Assembly (NCBI GenBank): GCA_963772275.1
Contig: CAVYWQ010000001.1
Location: 673,615 to 737,614, forward strand
Direction: 5' to 3'
DNA length: 64,000 bases
Source of the DNA: an uncultured Verrucomicrobiae bacterium
GTDB lineage: Bacteria > Verrucomicrobiota > Verrucomicrobiia > Chthoniobacterales > UBA10450
Shown: positions 3,010 to 64,000 of the stretch, in pieces
Layout of the letters: every line of letters starts with the position of its first letter
How positions within the stretch are numbered: position 1 is the stretch's first letter
Position numbers and translations under genes: made by a program
Notes under the pieces: generated by a model
Databases searched by the model: none
What the model saw: only the letters and a program-made list of their open reading frames with translations
What the model was told of the DNA's origin: nothing

Positions 3010-4227
3010 TTAATTCCGAGCGCGGTTGGAACGCAGCGCGTGGTAGAGCGCCTTGGTTTCCTCGGCGATGGCTGACCAGCTGAATTTTTCCTCGGCCCTT
3101 TGACGGCCGGCTTTGCCAAATTTTTCCCGCAATTTCGGATCGGCCATGAGCTGATTAATTTTTGCCGCCAGGTCGCGCGAAAACTTCTCGGGATGCAATG
3201 GGGCAAAGGGGCTTTCCTTCATCTGTTCGAGCGGCACGAGAAAGCCAGTTTCGCCGTCGACCACGACTTCCTTGATCCCGCCAACCGCACTGGCCACAAC
3301 CGCCGTTTCGCATGCCATGGCTTCGAGGTTGATGATACCAAAGGGCTCGTAAATCGACGGGCAACAGAAGACAGCCGCGTGCGAGTACAATTCGTAAACG
3401 GTTTTCTTATCCACCATTTCATCGATCCAGATCACATCAGATCGCTTCGCCTTCGCGGCTTTCACAGCAGCTTTCATCTCCGCGGCGATCTCCGGCGTGT
3501 CGGGTGCGCCCGCGCAGAGGACAATCTGGAATCCGGAATCCATGAAGGGAATCGCCCTAACGAGATGAATGATTCCCTTCTGGCGGGTAATGCGGCCGAC
3601 AAAAAGCAGAAATGGCCGCGCTGGATCAATCCCGTGACGGCGCAGCGCTTCGGTCGATTCCACGCGATGATATTCCTCGAGATCGATGCCGTTGTAGATG
3701 ACGTGCAGGTGTTCCGGTTTCACCTGAAACAACCGCTCGATATCCGCCTTTGTTTCATGTGAAACGGCGATAACCGCATCCGCCATCTCCAGAGCAGTCT
3801 TCTCGAGCCAGAGCGTAAAGTCGTAACCGCCGCCGAGTTGCTCGCGCTTCCACGGGCGCAACGGCTCGAGCGAATGCACTGTTATGACAAGCGGCAATCC
3901 GTAGTTCAGCTTGGCCAGGATTCCGCCGAAATGGCTGTACCACGTGTGACAGTGCACGACATCGGCGCCGATATTGGTGGTGTTGAAATCGGTACAGCGT
4001 CGCACCGCGCCGAAAACGGACTGCAGCGGCTTCGGGCAGGTGAAGTTGCTCGTATCAACACCGAAGCCGGTCACCTTGAGATTGCCCTTTTCCCAAAGCT
4101 GATCGCCAAAGCACCGCACTTCCACCGGCATCGTCTTGGCCAGCTCACGCGACAGATAATCGACGTGCACGCCGGCACCGCCATAAGTGTGGGGCGGATA
4201 CTCGTTCGTCAGGAAAAGCGCCTTCAT
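3010..4227 (-). CDS. glgA: glycogen synthase-like GT4 glycosyltransferase
   Basis: ORF trimmed to MKALFLTNEYPPHTYGGAGVHVDYLSRELAK, the N-terminus typical of actinobacterial-type glycogen synthases. GT-B C-terminal EPFGI motif present. Confidence 0.75.
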   Translation of the reverse strand: MKALFLTNEYPPHTYGGAGVHVDYLSRELAKTMPVEVRCFGDQLWEKGNLKVTGFGVDTSNFTCPKPLQSVFGAVRRCTDFNTTNIGADVVHCHTWYSHFGGILAKLNYGLPLVITVHSLEPLRPWKREQLGGGYDFTLWLEKTALEMADAVIAVSHETKADIERLFQVKPEHLHVIYNGIDLEEYHRVESTEALRRHGIDPARPFLLFVGRITRQKGIIHLVRAIPFMDSGFQIVLCAGAPDTPEIAAEMKAAVKAAKAKRSDVIWIDEMVDKKTVYELYSHAAVFCCPSIYEPFGIINLEAMACETAVVASAVGGIKEVVVDGETGFLVPLEQMKESPFAPLHPEKFSRDLAAKINQLMADPKLREKFGKAGRQRAEEKFSWSAIAEETKALYHALRSNRARN

Positions 4228-4306
4228 CGCCGCTCTTCCATAGGCGGGCCGGTGACGATTGCACGCAGTTTTCGCGCGGGACAAACCGGATAAATGCGAA
4301 GGCGTG

Positions 4307-4765
4307 TCAGCTTTTCACCTTCAAAAGCAGGACCGGCACGTTGACGCGATGCCGCACCTTGTCGGCCGTGCTGCCCCGCAAAAGATCGCCCAGGAACCGG
4401 TGGCCGTGCGTGGTCATGGCGATCAAATCGACCGCCTGCTCGCTGGCCAGCTTGATGATCTCGTCAGCCGGTTCGCCCTTGGCCAGAATCGATTTCGTTT
4501 CAAACCCTTCCGCCCGTAATTCCTTCTCCAATCGCGCGAGATAGGCCCGGTCGCGCTTCATCTCCTCGCTCTCCTGCAACTGGAACTGATCGAAATTACG
4601 CGCCACCCAGCCATCGGCCACGTGCACGAGAATGAGGCGCGCCTGCACCAGCCGTGCAAGCGGCCGGATATGCTGCAGGATGGTTTCATCGGTCTGCCGG
4701 TTTTCCACCGGCACGAGGATTGTCTTGTACATGCCAGGCAGCAACTTGATCGTTCGCTGGTTCAC
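4307..4765 (-). CDS. universal stress protein (UspA family)
   Basis: 152 aa. ILVPV...LILVHV...DLIAMTTHGHRFLGDLLRGSTADKVRHRVNVPVLLLK is the classic Usp ATP-binding C-terminus. Confidence 0.85.
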   Translation of the reverse strand: MNQRTIKLLPGMYKTILVPVENRQTDETILQHIRPLARLVQARLILVHVADGWVARNFDQFQLQESEEMKRDRAYLARLEKELRAEGFETKSILAKGEPADEIIKLASEQAVDLIAMTTHGHRFLGDLLRGSTADKVRHRVNVPVLLLKVKS

Positions 4766-4894
4766 GAACGCTTTTCATTTCTAGCTCTTCACGGCGGAAG
4801 AGAACAGCGGAAAAATAGCCGAACTCGCACTTGTTGCCGGCTGATCGCACGATTCTATCTTCCCAGGCAAGCACGCAATCCGCATTCTCCCACC

Positions 4895-6349
4895 ATGTCG
4901 TCCAAGCGCGCACAATTTCTTGTTCTGGCCATCGACATCGGATCCTCCTCCACGCGCGCCGCACTCTTCGATGATCGGGGCCGGCTCCTCCCCCAAACGA
5001 TGACGCAGGAAAAGTATCGCCTCACCTATGCGACGGACGGCGCGGTGGAATTGTCGCCGACCACCCTCCTGCGTGCAGCCAGGCGCTGCCTAACGAACGC
5101 TCTGGCAGCCCGCCGCCAGCATGTCACTTTGCAAAAAATGCCCATCGTGGCGGTGGGAGGCTCGGGGTTTTGGCACAGCCTTCTCGGCCTGGACCGAAAG
5201 GGAGATCCCCTTACGCCGATTCTTACGTGGGCCGATTCGCGCGGCACAGAGGACGCCCGGCAATTACGGACCAAACTTTCGGAGCGCGCCGTGCAAGAGC
5301 GCACCGGCTGCATGCTCCGCGCCTCCTTTTGGCCGGCCAAGTTAGTGTGGTTGCGCCGCACGCAGCCGCGGCTCTTTGCACGCGTCTCGCGATGGGTCTC
5401 GCCGGTCGATTGGGTTTACGAACAACTTTTCGGCGTCTGCTTTTCGAGTGCTTCCATGGTCAGCGCAACCGGTCTTTTCAATCAACAAACGCAACGTTGG
5501 GACGAAGAACTCTGCGCGCGGTGTAAAGTTCGAGCTGCACAATTGCCGGAAATTTCTGAAATGATCGATTCTCCGCCGAAGGGTGCGGGCGAATTGAAGC
5601 ATGCGCGCATTCTTACCGCGCTGGGCGACGGAGCGGCCAGCAATCTTGGTTCCGGAGCAGTCGAGCACGGAGTTGCGGCGATCAGCATCGGAACGAGCGC
5701 GGCGGTGCGCATATGGCAGGTTCGGCCTGGCAAGACTCAGCTGCCGTTCGGCCTGTTTCGCTATGTTGTCGATGGAAGGCGTCATGTTGTCGGCGGGGCG
5801 ATGAGTAATGCGGGCAACCTGCGGCAATGGTGCCTGCGCGAATTGCGTGTCAAGCCCGGGGGCGCGCTGGGACGGGCGGCTGCCGCGCGGGATTCGCTCA
5901 CGATCCTTCCCTTCTGGGTGGACGAACGCGCGCCGACCTGGCCTGAACCGAGCGGCGGAACAATCACCGGTCTCACCCAGGCAACAAGCGCGGCCCATCT
6001 CTATCGCGCGATCACTACGAGCATTTTCAATCGCATCGCCGAGATTCTTTTCCTGCTTGAAAGCCACGCCGGGCGCGCGCGCCGCATTATTCTTTCCGCC
6101 GGCGTTGTTCGCTCGGGACCATCGGTTCGTCTGCTCGCGGATGTGCTGGGGCGCGATCTGGAGATTTGCCGGGAAATGGAAGCGTCACTGCGAGGAGCGG
6201 CTTTGCATGTCCTGGAGGCGCTGAACTGCAGCCCATCGCCTTTGCGCCGCGGACATATCGTTAGGTATGACGCTGCGTTTGCGCGGCAGCATCAAGAGCG
6301 GCGGGCCCGCCAGCAGGCCCTGGAAAAGAACCTGAGCAATTTGTCGTAA
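4895..6349 (+). CDS. FGGY-family carbohydrate kinase (gluconokinase-like)
   Basis: ORF 4622..6349 trimmed to the ATG at 4895 (MSSKRAQFLVLAIDIGSSSTRAALFD). Has actin-like ATPase phosphate-1 and GDGAASNLGSG motifs. Confidence 0.8.
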   Translation: MSSKRAQFLVLAIDIGSSSTRAALFDDRGRLLPQTMTQEKYRLTYATDGAVELSPTTLLRAARRCLTNALAARRQHVTLQKMPIVAVGGSGFWHSLLGLDRKGDPLTPILTWADSRGTEDARQLRTKLSERAVQERTGCMLRASFWPAKLVWLRRTQPRLFARVSRWVSPVDWVYEQLFGVCFSSASMVSATGLFNQQTQRWDEELCARCKVRAAQLPEISEMIDSPPKGAGELKHARILTALGDGAASNLGSGAVEHGVAAISIGTSAAVRIWQVRPGKTQLPFGLFRYVVDGRRHVVGGAMSNAGNLRQWCLRELRVKPGGALGRAAAARDSLTILPFWVDERAPTWPEPSGGTITGLTQATSAAHLYRAITTSIFNRIAEILFLLESHAGRARRIILSAGVVRSGPSVRLLADVLGRDLEICREMEASLRGAALHVLEALNCSPSPLRRGHIVRYDAAFARQHQERRARQQALEKNLSNLS

Positions 6350-6532
6350 CTACAATCCCTCGCGCAGCTCGATGATTTCGCCGGGCCGGCACCGAATGGA
6401 GAGCGATATTGGCCGGCAGCAGACACTGCAATCTTCGACGAGCGATTGTTCGCCTAACGAAGTATCCACCTGCAGCGGGAATGCTTCGCCGCAATGGGGA
6501 CAAACTACCGTCGTCTCGACCAGTAGTTCCAT
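6350..6532 (-). CDS. CPXCG-motif cysteine-rich (zinc-ribbon) small protein
   Basis: 60 aa with CPHCG...CSVCC. Its start codon overlaps the stop of the upstream CNNM gene by 1 nt (TAATG). Confidence 0.7.
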   Translation of the reverse strand: MELLVETTVVCPHCGEAFPLQVDTSLGEQSLVEDCSVCCRPISLSIRCRPGEIIELREGL

Positions 6533-7938
6533 TAATGGCCAGCGTCTGATCCGGCCGGTTCTTTCGTTTGCGCGGAATCGAGCCGGCGAAAATGCAGCTG
6601 CTCGACGCGTCGCCCGTCCGTCTGCGAAATGGTGACCAGATAATTTTCAATCTGCACCTGCTCGCCCTGTTTCGGCAAATGGCCGAGCAAATGGGTCACA
6701 TAACCGCCGATCGTGCTCACATCGGAGCTTTCCAATTCCAAGCCAGCGAGATCTCGCAATTCGTAGAGGCCGAGCGCCCCGTCCACCGCGAATTCGTTCT
6801 CGTTAATCGAGCGGAATTCTTCCTTTTCGGCGTCGAATTCGTCCTGAATATCACCGACCAGCTCCTCGATGATGTTCTCCAGCGTCACCATTCCGACCGT
6901 GCCACCGTATTCATCGACCACGATGGCCAGATGGGCATGTTTGCTCAGGAAAAGATTGAGCAACTTTTCCAGCGGCATCATTTCCGGCACCGGAATCAGC
7001 TCGCGCCGAATGCGCATCAAATCGGGATGCGGATCGCGCATCATGGGCACGAGTTCCTTGATGTGAATGAGACCAAGCGCGTCGTCGAGATGACCGCGAC
7101 AAAGGGGAAAGCGCGTGTGCTTCGACTTGAGCGCCTTCTCGATGTTTTGCTCGAAGGTTTCTTCGACGTCGAGATAAACGACATCGCCGCGCGGCGTCAT
7201 GATGTCGCGCACGACGCGTTGTCGCAGATCGAGTGCGTTAACCAGAATCTGCCGACCGATCGGCGTCACTTCATCCGACTTCTGGCTTTGATTCAAGATA
7301 AGCCGCAATTCTTCTTCGCTATGCGCCAGGTCGGCGCCGCCGGCCCGCTGCAGACGGAGCAGTTTGACCAGTAAAAGATCGGACGACCTGTGCAGGACCC
7401 AGATGGCGGGCCGGAAGAGCCAGTAGAAACCAGCCAGCGGCCTAACGAGTCTTAGCGAGAGCGGCAGCGGATTGGCGATGGCCAGATATTTTGGGGCCAG
7501 CTCGCCAAAAATGATATGCATGAACGTGATGCCGATAAAGGCGAGCGTGACCGAGACCGAGGTGACCACGGCGATTGAATGGATGTGGGCCAGAGCGAAA
7601 AACGGCTGCAGCATTCCAGCGAGGAATTGCTCGCCGACCCAGCCGAGGCCGAGACTGGCGAGGGTCACCCCAAGCTGGGTGGCGGAAAGATAAGTGTCGA
7701 GATGCGCGCGGACATGACGGGTGGCGGCGGCGCGAGCGTCGCCTTCCTCGAGCAACGCTTCGAGCTGACTGGCGCGCACTTTGACGAGCGCGAATTCGCA
7801 CGCCACGAAGAAACCGTTGAGCAGGACAAGCGCGACAATGGCAGCGAGTTTGCCCAGGATAACGCCGGGTGAATCCCAATGCTCGGCGATTTCCTCCGCG
7901 AGCATCGCGAAAGCGAGAAGATGAAGGGAAAGATTCAT
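6532..7938 (-). CDS. CNNM/DUF21 + CBS pair + CorC_HlyC transporter-associated protein (hemolysin family)
   Basis: N-terminal TM DUF21 region, central CBS pair and a C-terminal CorC domain ([19 protein letters not shown]). Start set at MNLSLHLL; an alternative ATG lies at 7962. Confidence 0.85.
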
Positions 7939-10059: not shown

Positions 10060-12323
10060 TCTTTTGCGGACGATCTTCCTAGCAACTTGCGCAGTCCCTT
10101 TGTCTCGCTCACCGGGGCCTTGCAGGTGAAATTTTCGCAAACGTAGGCCGCGGCTTTTTCGTCCACCATTTTCATCGCGCCGATCTCCTCGTGCGTTTCG
10201 GCGAGATACTTTTGATCCTTCCCACCGTCTGCGAGGAGAACAACCGTATTCGGCAGGAAATGGCCGCGGATTTCGCGCAGGAGTTTACGCGTATCGTCAG
10301 CCTCCTTTTTCCCGGCCAGGACGATCTGCCGTGGCTTCCCCAGGGCAAAATCGAGGGCGCTCAACATCTGCGGCATGGCGGTGGGCGCGCGACGCAGAAC
10401 CCCGGAGAAAGCATCGATTGTTTTCCGCGCCTCGGCCTCCCACGGCTTCGCCTCGCGCATCTGCGCCAGGCGCAGCAGATTGAGCGCGCTAACCGAACTG
10501 GCCGAAGGTTCCGCGCCGTCGTTGTCGTCCTTCATGCGCAACAGCACACTCTTGTCCTTCCCCGTCGTGCTGAAATAACCGCCGTGCTTTTTGTCGAGGA
10601 AAAGTTCGTCCTGAGTCTTTTGTAAATCGAGCGCCCATTGCAGCCAGTTCACGTCAAAGGTCGCCTCGTAAAGATCGAGCAATCCCTGGATGAGGAACGC
10701 GTAATCTTCAGCGAATCCCTCGACCTCGCCCTTTCCGTCTCGATAATTTCGCGCCAGCCTTTTCGTCTTTGTATCATACAAATGCGTGCGCAGGAAATTC
10801 GCTGCCGTGGCCGCGGTCTCCGCATAGCTGCGATCGTTCAGCACCTGCGCGGCCCGCGCATAGGCGGAAATCATCAAACCGTTCCAGGCGGTAATGATTT
10901 TATCGTCGAGATGCGGCCGCGGGCGCTTTGCCCGCAAATCGAAGAGCGTCTTCCGATTCTTTTGCAAAGAGGTGCGCACCTCCTCGTCGTTTTTCCCAAC
11001 ATGCTTCGCCGTCTCGGCCACCGTATGCCGGCGAATCAGGACGTTCTTTCCTCGAAACTCACCCTGCGGATCGCTCCCGCCAGGAGCGTTGCCCTCGGCT
11101 TCGACACCATAATGGTAATCGAACATTGCCGCCTCCTCCCCTAATGAGTCGTCGATCTCTTTTTTCGTCCAGACATAAAACGCGCCTTCCGCCTTCTCCT
11201 TGTCACCGCGATCACCGCTCCCCGCGACAACGCTGTCCGCGTCCTCGGCGGAATAAAAACCACCCTCCTGTGCGCGAAGATCGCGACCCACGTAATCGAG
11301 CGTATCGCGCGCGACCGTTTCCAACTCGGATTCGTGCGTAACCTGAAACGCTTCCAGATACGACACCGCCAACTGCGCCTGGTCGTAGAGCATCTTTTCG
11401 AAATGCGGGACATGCCAGAGTGCATCGACCGAGTAACGATGAAAGCCGCCGCCAATCTGATCGTGGATCCCGCCCGCCGCCATCTTGCGCAGCGTGAGCA
11501 GGGTCATATCGAGCGCTTTCCTGCCAGCCGTCGAGCTCGCGCCTTCCCTCGCATACATGCGCAGGAGAAAATTGAGGATCACCGGGCGCGGAAATTTCGG
11601 TGCTCCACCAAAACCCCCCTCCCGCGCATCGAACATCCGCGCCATCTGCTGCGCGCCGCTCTGCAAAACTTCCGCGTCGAGATTCCCACCGGCGTTTTCC
11701 CCGCTGGCGGCGGCTTGCTGCAAAGCCTCCATGATCTTGCTTCCCTGCTCGGAAATCTTTTCGCGATTTTCCTTCCAGGCGGCAGCGATGCGCTGCAACA
11801 CCTTCGGAAACCCAGGCTGCCCGTGTCGATCCTCCGGCGGGAAATAGGTGCCGCCGACAAAAGGCTTCAGTTCCGGCGTCAGCCAAACGCTCATGGGCCA
11901 GCCGCCGCCACCGGTGGTCGCCTGCACGAACGTCATGTAGACGCGATCGACATCGGGACGCTCTTCGCGATCTACTTTGATGTTCACGAATTCGCGGTTC
12001 ATGATCGCCGCCGTTTGCTCGTTCTCGAACGACTCGTGCGCCATGACGTGGCACCAGTGGCAGGTCGAGTAACCAATCGAGAGAAAAATCGGTTTGTTTT
12101 CCTTCCGGGCCTTGGCGAAAGCCGCGTCCCCCCACGGATACCAATCGACCGGATTGTGCGCGTGCTGCAGGAGGTAGGGCGACTTCTCTCCCGCGAGGTG
12201 ATTGGTGTAAACCGCTCCTTGTTTTTGCCCGGCCTTAGTCGCAGTCACGCCCGACACTAACGAAACTAATGCAAAGAAAAAGCTCCAAGCGAGCCCAGGA
12301 CGCGAGTTTCGGCGCGCGTTCAT
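10056..12323 (-). CDS. thioredoxin-domain protein (YyaL/DUF255, N-acylglucosamine 2-epimerase-like fold)
   Basis: 755 aa with a signal/TM N-terminus. DUF255 motif [39 protein letters not shown]. Confidence 0.85.
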
Positions 12324-12345
12324 CTACAGATGAGAAGTCATGCGC

Positions 12346-12819
12346 TTACTGGAGCTTCAATTTCGGCGCCCGCGCCGGCGACCAGGGATTTTTCTCGTGG
12401 CGGCCGGCCAGAATGTCAGCTGCATACTGATCGAGTAGCGCGCAAAGCTTCCTCACATCGAGCCGATGGCGGCGCGGAGCAAAAGGCCCCAGATTCTCTT
12501 TGGCGAGCCGAAACAGGCGCGCGGCCGGAGCCAGCCGCCGGCCATGTTTCGGGTGTGTCGGGTGCTCGAATTGCTTCTTTAAGTGAACCAGGGCGCCGGC
12601 CGCCTGGATTAATCCCTTAAAAAATTGCGCATCATCCGAATCAGTTCGCAGCCAGAGATGCTCGAGCACATCGTGCGCTTCGTAATATTGCTGCTCGTTC
12701 CAGCACCGAAAAAAGGCGCGGTAGAATTCGTTCTGCGCGACATCGGTGGCCTCCCCGGATGCTTCCGCCGGTGCGTCCAAGTCCTGCACAAACTTTGAAA
12801 TCCGCTCGCCTTTGTTCAT
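12346..12819 (-). CDS. DUF309 domain protein
   Basis: ORF trimmed to MNKGERISKF.... DUF309-like core FFRCWNEQQYYEAHDVLEHLW. Confidence 0.65.
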   Translation of the reverse strand: MNKGERISKFVQDLDAPAEASGEATDVAQNEFYRAFFRCWNEQQYYEAHDVLEHLWLRTDSDDAQFFKGLIQAAGALVHLKKQFEHPTHPKHGRRLAPAARLFRLAKENLGPFAPRRHRLDVRKLCALLDQYAADILAGRHEKNPWSPARAPKLKLQ

Positions 12820-12917
12820 GAAAAGTCTAACTTCAGGGCGGCTGAGATGATCGGCAAACGAGCACGCTTCGATTTTTCGGGAGAGCAACGCCGGCGCCCG
12901 CGCCGTCGCGACGAAAA

Positions 12918-14192
12918 ATGACGGTGGGCGTTCTCATCAGTCTTCTCGTTCTTTTTGTCGCGCTGAATATCGCCTCCGCGCTTTTCTCCGGCCTGGAAAC
13001 TGCGCTTTTTTCGCTCAAGCCGCACCAGATTCGGCGGCTCGAAGCCAATCACCCGTCGCTCGCCGATTTCCTGCGCCTTTTTCGCGACAAACCACGCCGC
13101 GTCCTGAACGTGCTCTTATTGGGTGACGCCACCGCCAAGGTCCCGCTTGCTGTGCTCAGTCTTTTCTTTCTCTGGGGAAGTCCGCTCGCCGCGCGCCTGC
13201 CGCAATGGCTGGCCGCCCTTCTCATCTTCGCCGGGCTCGTCCTCGTCTGCGATCTCATTCCAAAGCTGCTCGCCCTTTCCGCTCCTTACCGCCTGTCCGC
13301 GCTTGGCGTTCTCACCCTGAGAGTCTTTCTCCCCTTTCTCGACCGCGTCGGGAGCGCCCTGGAAAAGGCCAGCTCCGCCATCGTCGATCGCGTCACGCCC
13401 AAGCGTCTCCTCACGCGCGCGCGACTGACCGACGAAGAACTCGAGACGCTGGTCGAGATCGGCGAGGAGGAAGGCGCGCTCCATGAAGCCGAGGGTGAGA
13501 TGATTCAGGAAATCATCAAGCTGGGCGACAAGACGGCCAAGGATTGCATGACGCCGCGGGTCGACACTTTTGCCCTGGCTGACGATCTGACGAATGAAGA
13601 AGCCATCGCGCAATTGCAGGAGAAACGTCATCGCCGTGTGCCGGTCTATGCCGATACGCCCGATCAAATCGTTGGCATTATCGATGTGAAACGGTTTCTG
13701 CTCGATCCGAGCGAGCATTATACCGAAATGCTGACCGCACCCTCGTTCGTCTCCGAGACCATGCGGGCCATGGATTTGTTGCGGCGGTTTCTCAGCCATC
13801 CGCAGGGGCTGGCCATCGTGGTCGACGAATTCGGAGGCACCGAAGGCATCATCACGCTTTCCGACATCGTCGAGGAAATCATCAGCGACGCCGCACCGCT
13901 CGGCGATGCCGAGCTTTACATCGAACCGCTTCCCGACGGCCGCTTCCTTGTTAATGGCAACGCCCGCCTCGACGATTTGAGCGAACACCTCGGCTTTGAA
14001 TTGGAAGCCGACGGCATCGACACGATCGGCGGCTGGATTTTCAACCGCCTTGGTTACGTGCCGCCGAGCGGCGCGAAGCTTGAGGTGCCGCATCTCTCAA
14101 TCACCGTACGGCGTTCCATGCGGCATCGCATCAAGGAAGTGGTGCTCGAGAAGACCAATGGCGCGGATGCCGCGAAGGAAGAGGAAGACTGA
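12918..14192 (+). CDS. CNNM/DUF21 + CBS pair + CorC_HlyC protein (hemolysin family)
   Basis: 424 aa with the same three-domain layout as 6532..7938. C-terminal IGGWIFNRLGYVPPSGAKL. Confidence 0.85.
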   Translation: MTVGVLISLLVLFVALNIASALFSGLETALFSLKPHQIRRLEANHPSLADFLRLFRDKPRRVLNVLLLGDATAKVPLAVLSLFFLWGSPLAARLPQWLAALLIFAGLVLVCDLIPKLLALSAPYRLSALGVLTLRVFLPFLDRVGSALEKASSAIVDRVTPKRLLTRARLTDEELETLVEIGEEEGALHEAEGEMIQEIIKLGDKTAKDCMTPRVDTFALADDLTNEEAIAQLQEKRHRRVPVYADTPDQIVGIIDVKRFLLDPSEHYTEMLTAPSFVSETMRAMDLLRRFLSHPQGLAIVVDEFGGTEGIITLSDIVEEIISDAAPLGDAELYIEPLPDGRFLVNGNARLDDLSEHLGFELEADGIDTIGGWIFNRLGYVPPSGAKLEVPHLSITVRRSMRHRIKEVVLEKTNGADAAKEEED

Positions 14193-14194
14193 TC

Positions 14195-15154
14195 ATGGAT
14201 CTGCTGGTGGTCTTCGGTTGTTGGGCCGTTTCCTTTTTGTTCGCCGGGATAGAAGCCGGTGCCCTCGCCGTCGATCCGGTCCGTCTGCGCGCTCAGGTCA
14301 AGCGCAAGCAGCGGAGCGCACAGCGCCTTTACCGCCTGCTGCAATCGCCGGAACGCCTTCTTGTCACCGTTCTGATTGTCACCAACATGGCCGACATTCT
14401 CGCCCTCCTTCTGTTGACGCGCCGGCTCTTTGTCGCCTTCGGCCTGATCGGCTTTCTCATTTCACTTTTCATCAACCTGCCCATTTACGTTTTCGTTTTG
14501 GGTGTCTTGCCAAAATCGCTTTTCCGCCGGTTTCCTTTCCGCGCACTTGCGCCACTCGCCGGCCTGCTTGAGATCGTCTCGACAATTCTCTGGCCTGTTC
14601 TTGAGATCGGGAAGCAACTTGGCGGCCTTTTTCTCCCGCGCAAAATGCAGGAACGCCCGCGTCTCTTCGCCGCGCGCGAAGAACTCAAGCAAATCGCCCT
14701 GCAAAGCGAAAAGGAAGGGTCGCTCACCGCCGCCGAGCGCTCCATGATTCATAACGTCGTCGATTTCACGACGGTGCAGGTGCGTCACGTCATGCTGCCG
14801 CTGGCCCGCGCCGTCATGATCAAGGCCCAAACTCCGGTCGACGAAGTCTTGCGCCTGAGCGCGACCACGAACGCGGATCGCATTCCGGTGATCGCTCGCA
14901 ACGGCCAGGCCGTCGGTCTGGTCAATGTGCTCGATATTCTTTGCGATCGAAAAGGACCCCGACCTCTCAATGATTATATGCGGCGCGTCATCACCGCGCG
15001 CGAAGACGAAGCCGCTTACCGAGTCATCCAACGCCTGCGCGCCGCCGGCCGCGGACTGGCCGTGGTCGAAAACGCAAAACACAAATTGACCGGCCTCGTC
15101 ACCATCGAGGAACTGATCAAACGCCTCGTCTCCGCCGCGCCGGCTCCGGCCTAA
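14195..15154 (+). CDS. CNNM/DUF21 + CBS-pair protein lacking a CorC domain
   Basis: 319 aa, starting 3 nt after the previous stop. TM DUF21 region plus a CBS pair. Its stop TAA lies inside a CCTAACGA octamer. Confidence 0.8.
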   Translation: MDLLVVFGCWAVSFLFAGIEAGALAVDPVRLRAQVKRKQRSAQRLYRLLQSPERLLVTVLIVTNMADILALLLLTRRLFVAFGLIGFLISLFINLPIYVFVLGVLPKSLFRRFPFRALAPLAGLLEIVSTILWPVLEIGKQLGGLFLPRKMQERPRLFAAREELKQIALQSEKEGSLTAAERSMIHNVVDFTTVQVRHVMLPLARAVMIKAQTPVDEVLRLSATTNADRIPVIARNGQAVGLVNVLDILCDRKGPRPLNDYMRRVITAREDEAAYRVIQRLRAAGRGLAVVENAKHKLTGLVTIEELIKRLVSAAPAPA

Positions 15155-15234
15155 CGAATCCGGCCGATGGAAATGCCGGCAACTGGCCTGCGCTCCGGAT
15201 ATTCGATCTCCGACCGATTCGTTGCGATAATCTC

Positions 15235-51072: not shown

Positions 51073-51240
51073 CCGTTGGGATGCCTCGAGTGCAGCGATT
51101 TGCCGCCGCACATTTGCGAATCCGCAGCACCTCATTCCCCAAGGCGGTTTGTTAGACCGTTCGTGTATGAGAAGCCCCGCGCCACCCACATCACAAAAAG
51201 CGGAAGGGCGCCTTCGTTTCCGAAAGCGCCCTTCATTTGC

Positions 51241-51636
51241 AATGGCGATAAGCCGAATTCTGTCGGCGTGATTACTCACGCGGATGATCATTTATCTCAG
51301 CTCACTTGCGTGAGCCGCCCGTCGCGCTTGCGCGTGACATGATGCGACTAACCCGAGGATCAACGGACCGGCTGCCCTTCCTCTGTTGCGTCTTGCACCG
51401 CATGGGGTTTTTCGTGCCTCGCGGATTACTCCGCGAGCGGTGAGCTTTTACCTCGCCTTTTCACCCTTACCTTTCCTTCGTTGCCAAAGAACCGGCGGTC
51501 TCATTTTCTGTGACACTTTCCGTCGCCGCCCCTTTTCAAGCGGCGGCGCCCGCGCGTTTTGCGCGGCATGTTGCCGTATGGTGTTCGGACTTTCCTCTGG
51601 CCAGCCTGACGACCGGCCAGCGATCATCTGCCATCA
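51241..51636 (-). ncRNA. rnpB: RNase P RNA (bacterial type A)
   Basis: The minus strand carries the universally conserved P4 strands AGAGGAAAGTCCGAACACC and ACAGAATTCGGCTTATCG, plus GGTAAGGGTGAAAAGG and GGTAAAAGCTCACCG. The ends are paired (P1) and approximate to about +/-5 nt. Confidence 0.9.
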
Positions 51637-51683
51637 AGCACCATTCTAACGCCTTCGCCGCGGGCGGGCAACTGCCGCTTCGT

Positions 51684-52409: not shown

Positions 52410-52432
52410 ATCGATTGGTTGGTTGACGTTGT

Positions 52433-53116
52433 TCAGAAAAGGAAATGCCGCAGAGCGTGGCCGACAGATTCGAAGAAATTTCCGCGCAGCGGGTCGGGAC
52501 GAAAAAATTGGACGACGAGCCCGGGACTGCCGATGAATGGCCGCAATACCCAGGCCAGCTGGCTGCCGAGAAGGAGATTACCGCCCAGCCAGCCAAACAG
52601 AGTTTGTCGTGCCATGCGGTCGCGGGTTCTCGTCTTTAGAAAAGCAAGCAACCTTCGATTTCCCGCGATGCCGGCACAGGCAATCAAGCCGACATGACTC
52701 AGGAGGATGACGCTATGACTCATGATGGGCGTCCCCGCGGACAGCGGCGGTGTGTTCCAGAGGAGAAAAAGCGTGACTGGCGTCAACGCGCCAAGGAGTA
52801 ACGCGGTGATGGCAAAGCTGCTCAGAATGGCGAGAAACGTTTGCCGAAAAGTCAGGTCCGAACCGAAAAGCTGCGCCAGCAATCCGTTGAGCAACGCGTT
52901 GCCGCCGCAAGTGAGAAAAATAAGAAGGGGAAATTTGATTGCGGTAAAGGCCGCCTGGAGCGGCGCACGCCACAGGCCGACCGTCGCGCCATAGACGCCG
53001 GCACCGACCAGGATCATGCCGCCACAGACAACGAAATGCCTGGAACCCGCGCGTTCAACAAGCGCCTTCAGCTCGCTGGTTCCGCCACACAGTAACGTCC
53101 TTACTGTCCGCCACAT
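52433..53116 (-). CDS. polytopic membrane protein (paralogue of 51684..52409)
   Basis: 227 aa, about 5-6 TM helices. Overlaps the ispH stop by 16 nt. Confidence 0.65.
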   Translation of the reverse strand: MWRTVRTLLCGGTSELKALVERAGSRHFVVCGGMILVGAGVYGATVGLWRAPLQAAFTAIKFPLLIFLTCGGNALLNGLLAQLFGSDLTFRQTFLAILSSFAITALLLGALTPVTLFLLWNTPPLSAGTPIMSHSVILLSHVGLIACAGIAGNRRLLAFLKTRTRDRMARQTLFGWLGGNLLLGSQLAWVLRPFIGSPGLVVQFFRPDPLRGNFFESVGHALRHFLF

Positions 53117-53979
53117 CTCTTCTCGTTGTGGTTGCCGCTTGGAGCGAAGCTGAGCAATCGCCCCCGCACCGCCTCCACAGTTTCCGGCAGCGTGGACGTC
53201 CCTGCGGTCACGCCGACGACCGCTACCCCCGCGAAGTCCGCCGGGATGAGCTCCTCCGCGCGTTCGACATGAATGGCGCGCCGGCCAGCCGCGCGGCAGG
53301 TCTCGACCAATTGCCGGGTGTTGTTGCTTTCGCGGCCGCCAACCACCACGATCACTTCCGCCTGCGCGATGAGATTTTGAAGCGCCCGTTGGCGGTCCTT
53401 TGTCGGTTTACAGACAGTGTCGACAAATCGCACCTCGGCCGCGGGCCGCGCTCGGCGAATCACGGCCACGAGCGAACGCACCCGCTCGATCGGCTGCGTT
53501 GTTTGCGAGATGATCCCATAACGCCGGGCAGTTGGGAGCCGCCTAATGTCGTCTTCGGAACCAAGCACGACCGACTCCGGAAAATCTTCCGTCAGGCCGC
53601 GCACTTCGACATGACCGATGTGTCCGATGACAACCGGGAAAAAACCTGCCGCCACCAGCTCGCGCAACTGCGCATGCGCGTGACGCACAAGCGGGCAGGT
53701 GCCATCGGCAATCGGGAAGCCGGTCCGGCGCAGAGCAGCGCGTTGCGTGTCGGAAATACCGTGTGCCGTAATCATGAGGCCCCCGACGTGCTCATTAGGC
53801 AAGGTCGCGAGTTCGCTTTCCTGCACGCCCTGCGCGCGCAGGCGTTCGCGTACGACGGGATTGTGCACGAGCTCGCCCAGGACGGTCAGCGGCGCCTTGC
53901 GCGCGAGGCGCTCGGCCTGAGCGATCGCGTCGCGCACCCCGAAGCAAATGCCAAAATGCTGGGCGAGGATAATTTTCAT
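53101..53979 (-). CDS. ispH: 4-hydroxy-3-methylbut-2-enyl diphosphate reductase
   Basis: ORF trimmed to MKIILAQHFGICFGVRDAI.... Conserved Cys ligands (CFGV, DGTCPLV, TVCKPT). Confidence 0.9.
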   Translation of the reverse strand: MKIILAQHFGICFGVRDAIAQAERLARKAPLTVLGELVHNPVVRERLRAQGVQESELATLPNEHVGGLMITAHGISDTQRAALRRTGFPIADGTCPLVRHAHAQLRELVAAGFFPVVIGHIGHVEVRGLTEDFPESVVLGSEDDIRRLPTARRYGIISQTTQPIERVRSLVAVIRRARPAAEVRFVDTVCKPTKDRQRALQNLIAQAEVIVVVGGRESNNTRQLVETCRAAGRRAIHVERAEELIPADFAGVAVVGVTAGTSTLPETVEAVRGRLLSFAPSGNHNEKRCGGQ

Positions 53980-54036
53980 CGGAAATTCGATCCGTTTAGA
54001 GTTACTTTGTGTCACAAAGTTTAGCGGCAAATTTTT

Positions 54037-54333
54037 TTATTTCTTTCCCATCTTTACGATTTGCTCCAGGACGTGCAGATAATCCTGGAAATGCGCGCGG
54101 CCCTTGACCGTGAGTGAGTAGCTCGTCTGCGGCCGGTCGAGCATTTCCTTGGTCACGGCGACCAGGCCGAGCTTGTGCAGCGTCCGCAGGTGCGAGATCA
54201 GGTTGCCATCGCTCATTTTCAGCTCCGCTTTCAGATCCTGAAAGGGCCAGCTCACACGTGTCGCCAAAAGCGTCATAATGGCGAGCCGCCCTTTTTCGTG
54301 GATCGCCTTGTCGAGCTTGTCGAAGTCGAGCAT
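54037..54333 (-). CDS. winged-helix transcriptional regulator (ArsR/HTH_34-like)
   Basis: 98 aa. IHEKGRLAIMTLLATRVSWPFQDLKAELKMSDGNLISHLRTLHKLGLV. Confidence 0.75.
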   Translation of the reverse strand: MLDFDKLDKAIHEKGRLAIMTLLATRVSWPFQDLKAELKMSDGNLISHLRTLHKLGLVAVTKEMLDRPQTSYSLTVKGRAHFQDYLHVLEQIVKMGKK

Positions 54334-54336
54334 CGC

Positions 54337-55005
54337 TCATTCGAAAACGGTTGCGCCGGCCGCAGCGGCAACGGCACTGCGACGCGGCCAGGTGCAGACG
54401 GCATAGACGATGTGATAAACACCGAAGGTCAGACCCATGAAAAAATTGGGAAAGAGATGAGAAGGCAGATCGTCCAGGAAAAAGAGGATCGTGGGAATGA
54501 ACAGAGCCGTGAGCAGAAAGGCCCATCCCAGAATGGAAAGCGAACGCGGCGCGAAGAACGTGGTGGAAAGCAAAGCCAGCCCATAAAAGGCGATCCAGCA
54601 GGTCACGAGGAGAATCTCGGTGTCGCCCAGGTAGCCCTGGCGCAGAAACCAAATCGTGGTGGCTGCGGGAATGAGCAGGCAGGGCGCAAAGGCCCGGATA
54701 GCCAGGCGCATCCCGGAAGAAATAAAGGGCCGACCGGCCCGGTTCGCTTCGCGCCAGACAAAGAATGTGTTAACCGCCAGCATCACCACGAGCAAACCAA
54801 GCCAGACGAACGCGAATTTCTTCGAATACGTGTACGAGATCCAGTCGGGCGACTTTGCGGCGTAGTGGAGACCGATCGAAACGCCGAGGGCGAGGATCCC
54901 GCCGACCAATGCGGTCGGCGACGAGATCGCGCGATAAACGGTGGCCCGTTCCATCAGGGCACGGATGATGCGAAGGTGCTCCTCGGCTCGCGCTCGTTCG
55001 TCCAT
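54337..55005 (-). CDS. membrane protein co-transcribed with the winged-helix regulator
   Basis: ORF trimmed to MDERARAEEHLRIIRALMERATVYRAISSP.... About 6 TM helices. Ends 3 nt before the regulator's start. Confidence 0.6.
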   Translation of the reverse strand: MDERARAEEHLRIIRALMERATVYRAISSPTALVGGILALGVSIGLHYAAKSPDWISYTYSKKFAFVWLGLLVVMLAVNTFFVWREANRAGRPFISSGMRLAIRAFAPCLLIPAATTIWFLRQGYLGDTEILLVTCWIAFYGLALLSTTFFAPRSLSILGWAFLLTALFIPTILFFLDDLPSHLFPNFFMGLTFGVYHIVYAVCTWPRRSAVAAAAGATVFE

Positions 55006-55057
55006 GGGATAGCTTTGTAATACAAAGCTTGTGTCGAGGCAAGCGCTTTTTTGCCAA

Positions 55058-55546
55058 TCAGAATGGTGAAGGCGTCGTCGCCAAAAACCAGCTGACCATG
55101 ATGATACCGATGATGAGCTTGCCCAGGATTCCTCCGAGGTTTCCAAGCAATGTCCCCCACCCGGCCCGGCCCGCCGCGACCAGACGCTGGCCCCCGATCA
55201 TTTCGCCTGCAACCGCGCCGACGATCGGACCGAGCAGCAACCATGGGAGCGGAAAGAACAAACCGACGAGCGTTCCCGCGAGAGCGCCAAATAATCCCCA
55301 GCGCGTCGCCCCGAAGCGTTTGGCGCCGACATAGCCGGCCGCGAAATCGAAACCGTAAGAAATCAGCGTCAGCAGGAGCAAAACAGTGAGGCTGCGCCAA
55401 CCGATACCGCCTTCCGGCCCGACCATGATGCGATGGAGAACGGCCGCCGCCAGGATGACCGTCGTGCCCGGAAAAATAGGGAGCACAGTGCCGATGAGTC
55501 CAATGGCCATCAGGATCAGAGCGATGAACCACCAGAGGAGGTGCAT
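55058..55546 (-). CDS. DUF456 family membrane protein
   Basis: 162 aa. MHLLWWFIALILMAIGLIGTVLPIFPGTTVILAA is a typical DUF456 N-terminus. Confidence 0.75.
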   Translation of the reverse strand: MHLLWWFIALILMAIGLIGTVLPIFPGTTVILAAAVLHRIMVGPEGGIGWRSLTVLLLLTLISYGFDFAAGYVGAKRFGATRWGLFGALAGTLVGLFFPLPWLLLGPIVGAVAGEMIGGQRLVAAGRAGWGTLLGNLGGILGKLIIGIIMVSWFLATTPSPF

Positions 55547-55668
55547 GGAGCATGTTACATCGAGAATCGTTACATCGTGAATCGCATCGTCGGAGCCGAT
55601 CCACGATTCTCGATTCTCGAATCACGGAACCCTTTGACCCTCTCAAGGCCGCTCCTATACTGAATTCC

Positions 55669-56163
55669 ATGGCACTCCAAGTCGGCAGTAAGGCACCAGA
55701 TTTCAGTTTACCCACCAAGACGGCCGACGGCCCGAAGCAGGTCAGGTTGAGCGATAATTTTGGCAGGAAGAACACGCTGCTGCTCTTTTTTCCGATGGCC
55801 TTTACCGGCACGTGCACGACGGAGATGTGCGACACGAGCAACGCGCTCGATGCGTACGCGGGAATGAATGCCGAAGTTTACGGCATCAGCGGCGACAATC
55901 CGTTCGCGCAGGAAGCGTGGGCGCAAAAGGAGAAAATCGGCGTGACGTTGTTGAGCGACTACGAGCACAAGGTCACGAAAGCGTACGATGTCGCCTACGA
56001 TGCGTTCTTGCCGCAATTGAATTTGGGAATGGCCGGCGTGGCGAAACGGTCCGCCTTCATCATCGATAAGAATGGCGTCATTCAATATGCCGAGCGCCTG
56101 GAGGACGCGCGGCAGTTGCCCGATTTCGAAAAGATCAAAGCGAAGCTGAAGGAGATGAAGTGA
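55669..56163 (+). CDS. peroxiredoxin (AhpC/TSA-redoxin family)
   Basis: ORF trimmed to MALQVGSKAPDFSLPT.... Peroxidatic Cys context FFPMAFTGTCTTEMC. Confidence 0.88.
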   Translation: MALQVGSKAPDFSLPTKTADGPKQVRLSDNFGRKNTLLLFFPMAFTGTCTTEMCDTSNALDAYAGMNAEVYGISGDNPFAQEAWAQKEKIGVTLLSDYEHKVTKAYDVAYDAFLPQLNLGMAGVAKRSAFIIDKNGVIQYAERLEDARQLPDFEKIKAKLKEMK

Positions 56164-56177
56164 AGAACCAAAGCGTT

Positions 56178-56254
56178 GTCATCCCGAGCAAAAACGAGGG
56201 ACCTGACAAGGTCGGAGATGATTTGCGAGGTCCTTCGCTTTCGCTCAGGATGAC
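56178..56254. repeat. imperfect 26-bp inverted repeat (22/26) between the peroxiredoxin gene and acnA
   Basis: Left arm GTCATCCCGAGCAAAAACGAGGGACC (56178..56203) and right arm GGTCCTTCGCTTTCGCTCAGGATGAC (56229..56254). Ends 9 nt before the acnA ATG. Confidence 0.75.
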
Positions 56255-56263
56255 GGGGGCGAC

Positions 56264-59168
<2,905 letters not shown>

Positions 59169-62426: not shown

Positions 62427-63563
62427 ATGTCCGGCCCGCTCTATTCGCGCTCGAATCCGTTTCCGGCCAAGATGACTGTCAATCGGCGTCTCAGCGCACC
62501 CGATTCGGAAAAGGACGTCCGCCATTTCGAGATCGACATCGGCGGCTCGGGTCTCAGTTACGAAGTCGGCGATTCCATGGCCGTTTATCCGACGAACGAT
62601 CCGGCGCTGGTCGAAGAGCTCATTCACGCTCTTTGCGCCACCGGCGATGAACTGGTGCCGGTGCCGAAGACGGAACCAAAGAAATTTCGGGAAGCGTTGC
62701 TGCGTCACTTTTCCATCACCAGCACAACGCCGAGGTTTCTCAAGGCGATCGTGGAAAAGGCGACGGCGGCCCCGTTACTCAAGGAACTGATGGAGCCGGC
62801 ACGCAAGCACGATCTCACGACCTACCTGTGGGGCTTGGAGCCGATCGATTTTCTCCTCGAACACCCGTCGGCCCGTTTCACGCCGGAGGAATTCGTGGGG
62901 CTCATGCCGAAATTGCAGCCCCGCCTCTATTCCATCGCCTCCAGCCTGAAGGAATGTCCGCGCTCGGTGCATTTCATTGTCGACGTCATTCGCTATGAAA
63001 GCCACGGCAGACCGCGCAAGGGGGTCGCTTCCGTTTTCCTGGCGGAACGTTGCGAGAAAACTTCGGTGCCGATTTTCCCGACCAGCGCGAAGCATTTTCA
63101 TCTTCCGGAGGATCCGAACGTGCCGATCATCATGGTCGGTCCGGGAACCGGCGTGGCGCCATTCCGGGCATTTCTTCAGGAACGACGCGCGACCGGGGCG
63201 CGAGGCCGGACCTGGCTCTTCTTCGGCGCACAGCGCGAGAAATCGGATTATTTCTACAAGGAAGATTTTGCCCGGCTTCGGAAAGACCACTTTCTCACCC
63301 GCATCGACACTGCGTTCTCACGCGATCAGGCCCATAAGATTTACGTGCAACACCGCATGGAGGAGAACGCGGCCGAGCTTTGGAAATGGCTCGAGGAAGG
63401 CGCGCTCTTCTATGTTTGCGGCGATGCCCTGCGCATGGCCAAGGACGTGGATGCCATGCTCCATAAAATCGTGGCCGAACAAGGCGGCAAAGATCCCGAT
63501 GGCGCCCGCGAATATGTTGAAAAATTGAAGGGCGAGAAGCGCTATAAGCGCGACGTCTATTAG
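62427..63563 (+). CDS. CysJ-like FAD/NADPH-binding reductase (sulfite reductase flavoprotein C-terminal module, no flavodoxin domain)
   Basis: 378 aa. Motifs RLYSIASS, GVASVFL, MVGPGTGVAPFRAF and a C-terminal YKRDVY typical of the diflavin-reductase FNR module. Confidence 0.85.
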   Translation: MSGPLYSRSNPFPAKMTVNRRLSAPDSEKDVRHFEIDIGGSGLSYEVGDSMAVYPTNDPALVEELIHALCATGDELVPVPKTEPKKFREALLRHFSITSTTPRFLKAIVEKATAAPLLKELMEPARKHDLTTYLWGLEPIDFLLEHPSARFTPEEFVGLMPKLQPRLYSIASSLKECPRSVHFIVDVIRYESHGRPRKGVASVFLAERCEKTSVPIFPTSAKHFHLPEDPNVPIIMVGPGTGVAPFRAFLQERRATGARGRTWLFFGAQREKSDYFYKEDFARLRKDHFLTRIDTAFSRDQAHKIYVQHRMEENAAELWKWLEEGALFYVCGDALRMAKDVDAMLHKIVAEQGGKDPDGAREYVEKLKGEKRYKRDVY

Positions 63564-63564
63564 A

Positions 63565-63595
63565 TGTAGAGGCGCTTGGCACAAGCGCCTCTACA
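63565..63595. repeat. REP-like palindrome, short third copy
   Basis: TGTAGAGGCGCTTG-GC-ACAAGCGCCTCTACA. Starts 2 nt after the cysJ-like stop, and its right arm contains the stop TAG of the convergent gene. Confidence 0.85.
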
Positions 63596-64000
63596 TCAAT
63601 CTCCTGCTCGCCAAAACGAGACCGATTACAAGAACCAGGGCACTTCCAATCGCGACAGCGCCGCCCCAAATCAACCACGCCGGCCGATAACGGAGGATCA
63701 GCCGGCCGCGGGCGCCAGGTGGGATTTCGACCACCGGAATTAGTTCGCGATAAGATTTCACCGGAAGATTCCGCGAACCCAGGCGCGCCTCATATCCGCG
63801 AAAATACGGGCGCGAAAAAGTTAGGAGCGCTGGCCGCGTGTCTGCAGTCGTTTGCAAGTCAACGACCACGCGATTGCGCGAATTTTCCAATATGGCCACC
63901 TTGGCCGGAGCAAACTGTTCGTTAGGCAAGGAGTCGAGCGTAGTCACCGAACGAATCGGCGCCAGGCCGCCACCACGCCGGTTGTAGATGCGACCCGCAT
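63591..64000 (-). CDS. C-terminal fragment of a membrane protein (YfhO/glycosyltransferase-like C-terminus), 5' end outside the window
   Basis: The frame is open from the window edge to the stop at 63591. Beta-rich ecto-region then a terminal TM (AWLIWGGAVAIGSALVLVIGLVLA). The family call is tentative. Confidence 0.5.
   Translation of the reverse strand, partial: AGRIYNRRGGGLAPIRSVTTLDSLPNEQFAPAKVAILENSRNRVVVDLQTTADTRPALLTFSRPYFRGYEARLGSRNLPVKSYRELIPVVEIPPGARGRLILRYRPAWLIWGGAVAIGSALVLVIGLVLASRRLM

Follow-up and report, generated by a model that had tools for sequence, protein, structure and literature searches.

To our knowledge, sequence-specific tags for DNA uptake have been demonstrated in two proteobacterial families only, and the only other well-studied hyperabundant word that we know of, cyanobacterial HIP1, has a debated function. 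The uptake signal sequences (USS) and DNA uptake sequences (DUS) reshape proteomes and spread by molecular drive (PMC2817400); molecular drive and lineage-specific DUS "dialects" have been described in Neisseriaceae (PMC3630211). For HIP1, a role in nucleoid structure has been proposed (PMC5861425), and it is reported to raise transformation efficiency in a manner that depends on methylation (bioRxiv 10.1101/2024.09.10.611283). Here, we describe a word of comparable abundance in a 64-kb stretch of metagenome-assembled DNA (the window) from Chthoniobacterales, relatives of 'Candidatus Udaeobacter' in the Verrucomicrobiota. The 9-mer GCCTAACGA is a lineage-specific genomic word with the octamer CCTAACGA as its invariant core.

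A direct search located 28 exact copies of CCTAACGA in the window, 14 on each strand, and every coordinate and strand listed in the original prediction, which had been made from the sequence alone, matched exactly. Dinucleotide-preserving shuffles of the window contained 0.80 copies on average and never more than 3, and Markov models of order 0, 1, 2, and 3 predicted 1.71, 0.79, 0.66, and 0.99 copies, respectively. CCTAACGA ranks first by z-score among all 8-mers of the window (33.7 under the order 2 model and 27.1 under order 3); most words ranked just below are extensions that overlap it, such as GCCTAACG and CTAACGAN. By raw frequency, it is tied for fourth place, alongside words made of G and C only. 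Uptake sequences as a class occur at about 0.5 to 1 per kb, far above what composition predicts; here, 28 copies are found against 0.7 to 1.7 expected, and relatives carry 0.3 to 1.4 per kb.

The excess is also seen when coding constraints are taken into account. Codons were shuffled synonymously within genes 1000 times in 47 coding sequences (CDS) spanning 56.4 kb. The CDS list comprised open reading frames (ORFs) backed by Pfam or NCBIfam matches; self-trained gene finders were dropped for this purpose since they missed genes with clear matches of this kind. These shuffles produced a mean of 1.0 and a maximum of 5 copies of CCTAACGA, compared to the 19 present, and shuffling the codon order of the same 47 CDS gave an expectation of 0.36. 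Thus, none of the dinucleotide, Markov (order 0 to 3), and synonymous-codon nulls accounts for the excess; checks of this kind had been proposed together with the prediction. The codons that spell CCTAACGA are rare in the CDS of the window: TTA and CTA account for 3 and 2% of Leu codons, AGG for 4% of Arg codons, and CCT for 10% of Pro codons, which confirms the earlier remark on rare TTA, CTA, and AGG codons. Within genes, GCCTAACGA is ~30 times above chance in both orientations.

The position preceding the octamer (−1) is G in 18 window copies, C in 8, A in 2, and T in none; among 301 copies pooled from the window and its relatives, it is G in 82%. Every other flanking position within 25 nt contributes at most 0.13 bit. 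Therefore, the 9-mer GCCTAACGA is a complete unit rather than part of a longer repeat. The original prediction had treated the octamer as the unit with only −1 biased (G or C in 26 of 28); the bias is real, while the true core is one base longer. It had also held that the copies are not pieces of a longer alignable repeat, and this is upheld by flanks that are uninformative beyond the −1 G and by gain of the word through substitution rather than insertion. The word thus differs from repetitive extragenic palindromic (REP) and miniature inverted-repeat transposable element (MITE) repeats, which are longer, mainly intergenic, and inserted.

Approximately 75 to 85% of word copies lie within CDS. 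All four stop-free frames carry the word, the remaining two containing TAA or TAG. Our recount in the window gave about 9 to 10 Pro-Asn-Asp/Glu, 4 x-Leu-Thr, 3 Ser-Leu-Gly, and 5 x-Val-Arg readings; the use of every stop-free frame had been recognized before, with a tally of 10, 4, 5, and 4. Pooled copies are read as Ser-Leu-Gly (81), x-Leu-Thr (47), Pro-Asn-Asp/Glu (43), and x-Val-Arg (30), with 34 unassigned or noncoding. Occupation of several coding frames, with reshaping of codons and residues, is a property of uptake sequences that the word shares. Copies are sense to genes in 90 pooled cases and antisense in 111, with no preference, and along the window they are spaced as if placed at random (coefficient of variation of 0.88, P = 0.34).

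The two orientations are interleaved along the window. Pooled over syntenic loci of relatives, the orientation ratio is 124:140 (heterogeneity P = 0.29), and 11 independent contigs have a majority-strand fraction of 0.627 compared to 0.618 under the null (P = 0.41), with no correlation with GC skew. A 20:9 ratio in one region of a relative (L235; L numbers designate loci and contigs) is within chance because many regions were examined. Like uptake sequences, the word is therefore present in both orientations without replichore polarity, as had been claimed for the window; the replication-co-oriented strand bias of Chi, KOPS (FtsK-orienting polar sequences), and SRS (SpoIIIE recognition sequences) motifs is not seen. 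Since there is neither strand polarity nor a sense/antisense preference, Chi/KOPS-type and RNA-level roles are very unlikely.

The aconitase gene of the window was used to retrieve 80 loci of roughly 23 kb from species-representative genomes. The closest aconitase loci (73 to 86% amino acid identity) all come from soil metagenome-assembled genomes (MAGs) labelled Chthoniobacterales, 'Candidatus Udaeobacter', Spartobacteria, or Verrucomicrobiota. Word density across the loci is bimodal: ~20 loci have 0.3 to 0.85 copies per kb, with the word again scoring highest of all their 8-mers, while 50 are essentially at background. Pooled word-rich loci contain 235 copies in 435 kb (0.54 per kb), and word-poor loci contain 25 in 805 kb (0.031 per kb). 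In the aconitase tree, the distribution has phylogenetic structure but is patchy, with one large word-rich clade, within it a subclade where the word is fading (0 to 0.22 per kb), and isolated word-rich lineages outside it. A ranking by whole-locus nucleotide identity is equally patchy: the nearest relatives of the window are word-poor, and among genomes of similar closeness some carry the word and others lack it.

A metagenome scan returned about a dozen unrelated contigs (58 to 62% GC) with dispersed copies at 0.6 to 3.6 per kb, one of which was assigned to Chthoniobacterales by protein homology. The 21-kb neighborhoods of a protein from that contig in two other MAGs hold 29 and 25 copies (1.2 to 1.4 per kb), and the word is their most frequent 8-mer. 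Thus, the word is abundant outside the aconitase region as well. The contig with an apparent 3.6 copies per kb, L159 (Ga0137408_1449394, 4380 nt), is a fold-back assembly artefact: its second half is the reverse complement of the first, only half of it is independent sequence, and its 16 apparent copies represent 8 independent ones. In L235, the first 14.7 kb have 1.9 copies per kb and the last 6.7 kb (14669-21380) a single copy; from about 17.5 kb, this last stretch is not syntenic with the related MAG L236, and it may be a word-poor island of recent acquisition. In L034 and L057, gaps free of the word (P of about 0.03 each) contain ordinary genes and no obvious mobile elements. A scan of viral contigs for close pairs of the 9-mer had low power and gave 34 matches, all of them chance pairs or tandem arrays and none dispersed; it says little about phages because close pairs are rare even in word-rich genomes.

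How the word arises and persists can be seen at orthologous sites. When 76 aconitase genes were aligned with guidance from the proteins, the word was found at 11 distinct sites, several of them common to 6 to 19 genomes; it was gained there by point substitution, without indels. Some gains are synonymous: word-rich genomes spell QSLGL as CAG-TCG-TTA-GGC-, where word-poor ones use TCA-CTT-GGG or TCG-CTC-GGG. Others change the protein, and only in word-rich genomes: MNDEF to MPNEF, GQLRE to GSLGE, PSLKE or PSLSE to PSLGE, and HLVQL to HLVRL. A word directly after the start codon (ATG-CCT-AAC-GA, codons 2 to 4) recurs, both in the window (52399-52409), where this placement had been noted and is confirmed, and at the aconitase start of eight relatives (L007, L013, L023, L026, L048, L053, L057, and L068), where MPNEF replaces the ancestral MNDEF.

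Between word-rich genomes at 70 to 80% nucleotide identity, the word is intact at 39 to 60% of orthologous sites compared to 11 to 23% for arbitrary 8-mers (three to four times better), whereas between word-rich and word-poor genomes it is intact at 2 to 4% compared to 11 to 15% (about four times worse); although phylogeny makes these pairwise counts interdependent, the effect is large and of opposite sign in the two classes of pairs. Some variants seem to be tolerated among the one-mismatch neighbors of the word: CCTAACGG is 18-fold, ACTAACGA 5-fold, CCTAACAA 3-fold, and CCTGACGA 2.2-fold commoner in word-rich than in word-poor loci, while CCTAGCGA and CCTTACGA are rarer there. C-to-T neighbors are neither depleted nor enriched (ratios of 1.1 to 1.15, from small counts). 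The window holds 13 one-mismatch copies that keep CTAACGA or CCTAACG (span 12256..56493); the original prediction had at least 12, all of which are real, with starts displaced by 0 to 1 nt, and the 13th lies at 45922 on the minus strand. The A-to-G variant CCTGACGA is itself enriched in the window (10 copies compared to 2.7 expected) and has 11 sites in L236. Positions 4 and 8 may tolerate a purine change.

Overall, these results show that a DNA-level force maintains the lineage-specific word, raised to about 0.4 to 1.4 per kb. The force acts on the sequence of double-stranded DNA, independently of coding frame, strand, and direction of transcription; under it, the word is generated through point substitutions, even where these alter the protein, and copies already present are kept. 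The results also show that the word can be lost or swapped for another specificity on a genus-level timescale, and that proteins, RNAs, and transposition do not account for its abundance. The rare codons and residue changes confined to word-rich genomes, together with the three- to fourfold better conservation, strengthen the earlier suggestion of selection for the DNA word itself rather than for a peptide.

Several sister genomes without GCCTAACGA carry a different dispersed word, AAGATCGACA[A/T]. The loci that hold this word are L058, L051, L056, L052, L035, L009, L032, L044, and L016. Its density is 0.87 per kb compared to 0.021 in other loci and reaches up to 2.2 per kb in L058, where the AGATCGAC core is present 39 times in 17.4 kb. 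Both orientations and all six frames are used, and the flanks are unrelated; the word includes GATC and TCGA and is kept at orthologous sites in 52 to 73% of comparisons, compared to 9 to 12% for arbitrary 10-mers. L058 bears the GCCTAACGA and AAGATCGACA words together, both at high density. A third dispersed word, CGTACTCA, has 12 copies with unrelated flanks in the 22.9 kb of L020 (328-21592), where 1.4 are expected; L039 has 3 copies, and no other locus reaches three. Other enriched 8-mers were rejected: those of L027 (2912-3696) and L073 (1612-1788 and 13050-13912) belong to tandem arrays with periods of about 48, 8, and 215 nt that have no relation to the dispersed words, those of L039 and L067 form local clusters, and those of L004, L008, and L019 are nonsignificant after multiple testing. 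The unusual feature is that several unrelated words are found inside one order.

The copies in the window and their genes are listed below, together with other located features. The genes that bear the word are ordinary housekeeping genes, including those for cytochrome oxidase, alternative-complex-III-like proteins, aconitase, IspH, MoeA, transporters, and glycosyl hydrolases. Comparison with ORF ends confirmed that three copies donate stop codons, as predicted, and likewise bore out one copy 3 nt before the ydiJ-like start and one between convergent genes (42016), to which the copy at 6453 can be added.

Coordinates of CCTAACGA copies, one-mismatch copies, and other features in the window (word, exact copy of CCTAACGA; TPP, thiamine pyrophosphate; TAT, twin-arginine translocation)
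Feature	Position	Strand	Location	Reading or remark
Word	3556..3563	+	CDS 3010-4284(-), GT4 glycosyltransferase	nTC-GTT-AGG (Val-Arg)
Word	5089..5096	+	CDS 4622-6349(+), FGGY sugar kinase	CTA-ACG (Leu-Thr)
Word	6258..6265	-	CDS 4622-6349(+), FGGY	GTT-AGG (Val-Arg)
Word	6453..6460	+	Intergenic, convergent genes 4622-6349(+) / 6532-7962(-)	
Word	7441..7448	+	CDS 6532-7962(-), CNNM/CorC transporter	GTT-AGG
Word	15150..15157	+	CDS 14195-15154(+)	Provides TAA stop
Word	19766..19773	-	CDS 18270-21407(-), YdiJ-like FAD/FeS oxidoreductase	CTA-ACG
Word	21411..21418	-	CDS 18270-21407(-), YdiJ-like	3 nt upstream of start codon
Word	22455..22462	-	CDS 21596-22714(-), enolase superfamily	CCT-AAC-GAA (Pro-Asn-Glu)
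Word	22545..22552	+	CDS 21596-22714(-), enolase superfamily	TCG-TTA-GGC (Ser-Leu-Gly); 90 nt from 22455 copy, opposite orientation
Word	24023..24030	-	CDS 22723-24513(-), TPP-requiring enzyme	CCT-AAC-GAC
Word	25046..25053	+	Minus-strand ORF ending at 25047	Provides TAG stop
Word	28658..28665	-	3′ end of CDS 28612-29490(-), SCO1-like; overlaps 5′ end of COX2 ORF	Pro-Asn-Glu
Word	29539..29546	-	ORF 29487-30674(-)	CCT-AAC-GAG (frame from ORF end)
Word	30172..30179	-	Overlapping minus-strand ORFs 29960-31123 and 29487-30674	CTA-ACG and CCT-AAC-GAC, respectively
Word	31568..31575	-	CDS 31194-32216(-), cytochrome c	CTA-ACG
Word	31944..31951	+	CDS 31194-32216(-), cytochrome c	GTT-AGG
Word	36189..36196	+	CDS 34872-36947(-), molybdopterin-oxidoreductase-like, TAT	GTT-AGG
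Word	39454..39461	-	CDS 37827-39677(-), GH15 glycosidase	CCT-AAC-GAC
Word	40921..40928	-	CDS 40860-41498(-), GNAT acetyltransferase	CCT-AAC-GAG
Word	42016..42023	+	Intergenic, convergent genes 41473-42012(+) / 42038-43108(-)	
Word	44101..44108	+	ORF 44102-45247(-), PEGA domain	Provides TAG stop
Word	44367..44374	+	ORF 44102-45247(-), PEGA domain	TCG-TTA-GGC (frame from ORF end)
Word	47412..47419	+	CDS 47040-48221(+), MoeA	CCT-AAC-GAG
Word	50848..50855	+	CDS 50398-51072(+), YfiH/laccase-like	CCT-AAC-GAC
Word	52399..52406	-	ORF 51684-52409(-)	Codons 2-4 (ATG-CCT-AAC-GAC)
Word	58952..58959	-	CDS 56264-59173(+), aconitase	TCG-TTA-GGC, motif QSLGL; site bears word in 19 aligned sequences (18 relatives + window)
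Word	63919..63926	-	Downstream of CDS 62427-63563(+), at window end	
One-mismatch copies (starts)	12256, 18949, 19312, 20926, 32938, 34871, 44723, 44738, 45922(-), 46364, 46714(-), 48413, 56486			
REP-like element	59169-59232			
REP-like element	59952-60016			
REP-like element	63565-63595			
tRNA-Ser(GCT)	46847-46936	-		
RNase P RNA	51235-51639	-		Class A, 203 bits
tRNA-His(GTG)	62319-62391	+		

A minus-strand respiratory cluster (25346-37363) contains 7 of the 28 copies, and the 25046 copy lies just upstream of it. The cluster encodes cytochrome c oxidase subunits I to III, SCO1, and alternative-complex-III-like proteins (multihaem cytochrome c7, a TAT molybdopterin-oxidoreductase-like subunit, 4Fe-4S, NrfD, and cytochrome c). 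Overlap with the RNase P gene is seen for a long, probably spurious ORF, 51510-52697(+). A palindromic intergenic REP-like element, GATGTAGAGGCGC[C/T]TG...CA[A/G]GCGCCTCTACATC, is located at 3′ ends of genes, for example, directly after the aconitase stop codon. Its hairpins are very stable (−29 to −60 kcal/mol, z of −8 to −11). The element, whose core TGTAGAGGCGC was also found in L003, L005, L008, L036, and L046, probably represents a bidirectional terminator or a REP family. The second most enriched 8-mer of the window, CCTCTACA (9 copies), owes its rank to being an arm of this hairpin, and is set apart from CCTAACGA by conserved flanks, as part of a long repeat.

The mechanism that best fits these observations, and that we favor tentatively, is that of a self-DNA tag of the uptake-sequence (DUS/USS-like) type. 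A DNA-handling component on the route of transformation or recombination would prefer fragments that bear the word. Each round of uptake and homologous recombination would then replace word-less alleles by word-bearing ones, and the same molecular drive would shield existing copies from decay. Lineages that lose or swap the recognizing component would lose the word or gather another, such as AAGATCGACA or CGTACTCA. Recognition could be direct or could rely on methylation of specific sequences, a role reported for HIP1 in the transformation of cyanobacteria. Transformation genes are reported to be nearly ubiquitous in bacteria (PMC6744872). The original description, a nonpolar, uptake-sequence-like word acting at the DNA level, is supported to the extent that sequence can test it, "uptake-sequence-like" being a resemblance.

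Several observations weigh against such a tag. The alternative words of sister lineages are mutually unrelated, whereas DUS dialects differ by 1 to 3 bases. Two words coexist at high density in L058, which fits swappable modules of a methyltransferase or restriction type more easily than a slowly evolving pilin receptor. The word forms no terminator-type pairs, and a separate REP-like hairpin occupies 3′ gene ends in the window; no direct or inverted arrangement is preferred, with 11 of 251 neighboring pairs within 150 nt, unlike the inverted-pair terminators (and GCCGTCTGAA-type core) of Neisseria DUS. The depletion in foreign DNA that uptake tags would lead one to expect was not seen: conserved segments have 0.54 copies per kb and segments without homologs 0.45, a nonsignificant difference (P = 0.49). 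Pfam and NCBIfam matches in the window revealed no mobile elements and no competence, pilin/pilus, or methyltransferase gene.

The word could instead be, like HIP1, the target of an orphan DNA methyltransferase, possibly with associated repair or nicking, kept for an intracellular function without discrimination at uptake; proposed functions of this kind are nucleoid organization, strand choice in repair, and stimulation of recombination. We consider this a serious competitor, although somewhat less likely than an uptake tag. The statistical signature is the same, since the large over-representation and between-genome conservation above background that characterize HIP1 (PMC5861425) are both found here. 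Patchy presence at the genus level, unrelated sister words, and the two words of L058 are what horizontally swapped methyltransferase specificities would produce, AAGATCGACA contains GATC and TCGA, and HIP abundance in cyanobacteria has been linked to specific methyltransferases (PMC4390886). However, the word is not palindromic, the window lacks a methyltransferase gene, and the C-to-T neighbors stay at the ratios given above. Very-short-patch-type repair gives only a modest excess in known cases (Escherichia coli CCWGG) and, alone, would not be expected to drive amino acid replacements. A methylation-marked uptake or recombination tag would reconcile the HIP1-like reading with that of an uptake sequence.

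An orientation-neutral self-marker, by which a nuclease or defense system would spare word-bearing DNA or process it differently and so select for even coverage in both orientations, by a Chi-like logic without replication polarity, is unlikely. It would account for the patchy, swappable distribution and unrelated sister words, as for mobile defense modules, for the roughly 1- to 2-kb spacing in both orientations, and for conservation of sites among word-rich genomes; but the window has no defense genes, nothing positively sets this explanation apart from the uptake or HIP1-type ones, and we know of no nuclease or defense system that drives a 30-fold enrichment of an 8- to 9-mer. A polar chromosome signal, that is, a Chi site for RecBCD/AddAB or a KOPS/SRS-type guide for FtsK/SpoIIIE, is highly improbable: the Chi/KOPS-like length and density and the 20:9 region of L235 speak for it, yet orientation is balanced in the window, the pooled loci, and the 11 contigs, without correlation with GC skew, and the word differs between sister genera, unlike Chi. 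Finally, only the bare count would suggest a by-product of protein motifs or codon usage, or dispersed fragments of a mobile repeat. This explanation has a negligible chance of being correct and is refuted by the codon shuffles (19 compared to 1.0), the four frames, the rare codons, the unalignable flanks, and the origin of copies by substitution.

Literature searches with the word itself returned only primer-like coincidences, and searches for Udaeobacter, Chthoniobacterales, or Verrucomicrobia combined with uptake sequences or competence found nothing relevant. We therefore take the word to be a previously undescribed member of the class of hyperabundant genomic words that are maintained, in a phylum new to that class. 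Relatives of 'Candidatus Udaeobacter' are described in the literature as among the most dominant groups of soil bacteria, and the phenomenon is robust and widespread in this uncultured lineage. A third case would matter because it resides in soil bacteria that are uncultured and extremely abundant, a dominant lineage whose evolution would then be shaped by gene exchange that prefers self-DNA or by some other genome-wide recognition of DNA. The bolder proposition, which we find somewhat doubtful, is that Chthoniobacterales near 'Candidatus Udaeobacter' tag self-DNA for natural transformation, which would be the third independent uptake-sequence system, the first outside Proteobacteria, and one with modular tags. 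If so, unrelated tags (GCCTAACGA, AAGATCGACA, and CGTACTCA) would swap between genera and could share one genome, which would suggest a receptor of a new kind or a tag that depends on methylation, rather than a ComP-like pilin that drifts through point mutations. The presence, absence, and switches of words make a natural experiment, in which comparison of word-rich and word-poor genomes could identify the recognizer. The words could also serve as markers in binning, in spotting foreign DNA, and possibly in designing DNA acceptable to these so-far-unculturable organisms.

Among known systems, Chi (GCTGGTGG) and KOPS/SRS are likewise over-represented 8-mers recognized by DNA-processing machines but, unlike GCCTAACGA, are strongly co-oriented with replication. 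The DUS of Neisseriaceae (GCCGTCTGAA core, ComP receptor) is, like GCCTAACGA, a hyperabundant short lineage-specific tag without replichore polarity, and it has lineage-specific variants, the dialects of PMC3630211; these dialects differ by few bases, whereas the Chthoniobacterales words are mutually unrelated, and DUS often forms inverted-repeat terminators, in contrast to the unpaired GCCTAACGA. The USS of Pasteurellaceae (AAGTGCGGT / ACAAGCGGT) shares with GCCTAACGA a nonpalindromic 9-mer core present at roughly 0.5 to 1 per kb in both orientations, and related lineages use different cores. It is also mostly intragenic, in several frames, and accommodated by synonymous and nonsynonymous changes at less constrained positions (PMC2817400). 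GCCTAACGA is unrelated to the USS core in sequence, lacks its helically phased AT-rich flanking segments, and is found in Verrucomicrobiota rather than Gammaproteobacteria, and the alternative words of sister lineages share no similarity. HIP1 (GCGATCGC) is, unlike GCCTAACGA, palindromic and the target of known methyltransferases, and a periodicity of 10 to 90 kb has been reported for it. Like the word described here, HIP1 is built on an octamer, is 15- to 300-fold over-represented and conserved beyond background within and between ORFs (PMC5861425), and is independent of frame, absent or replaced in some lineages, and of long-unknown function (PMC5861425 and PMC4390886).

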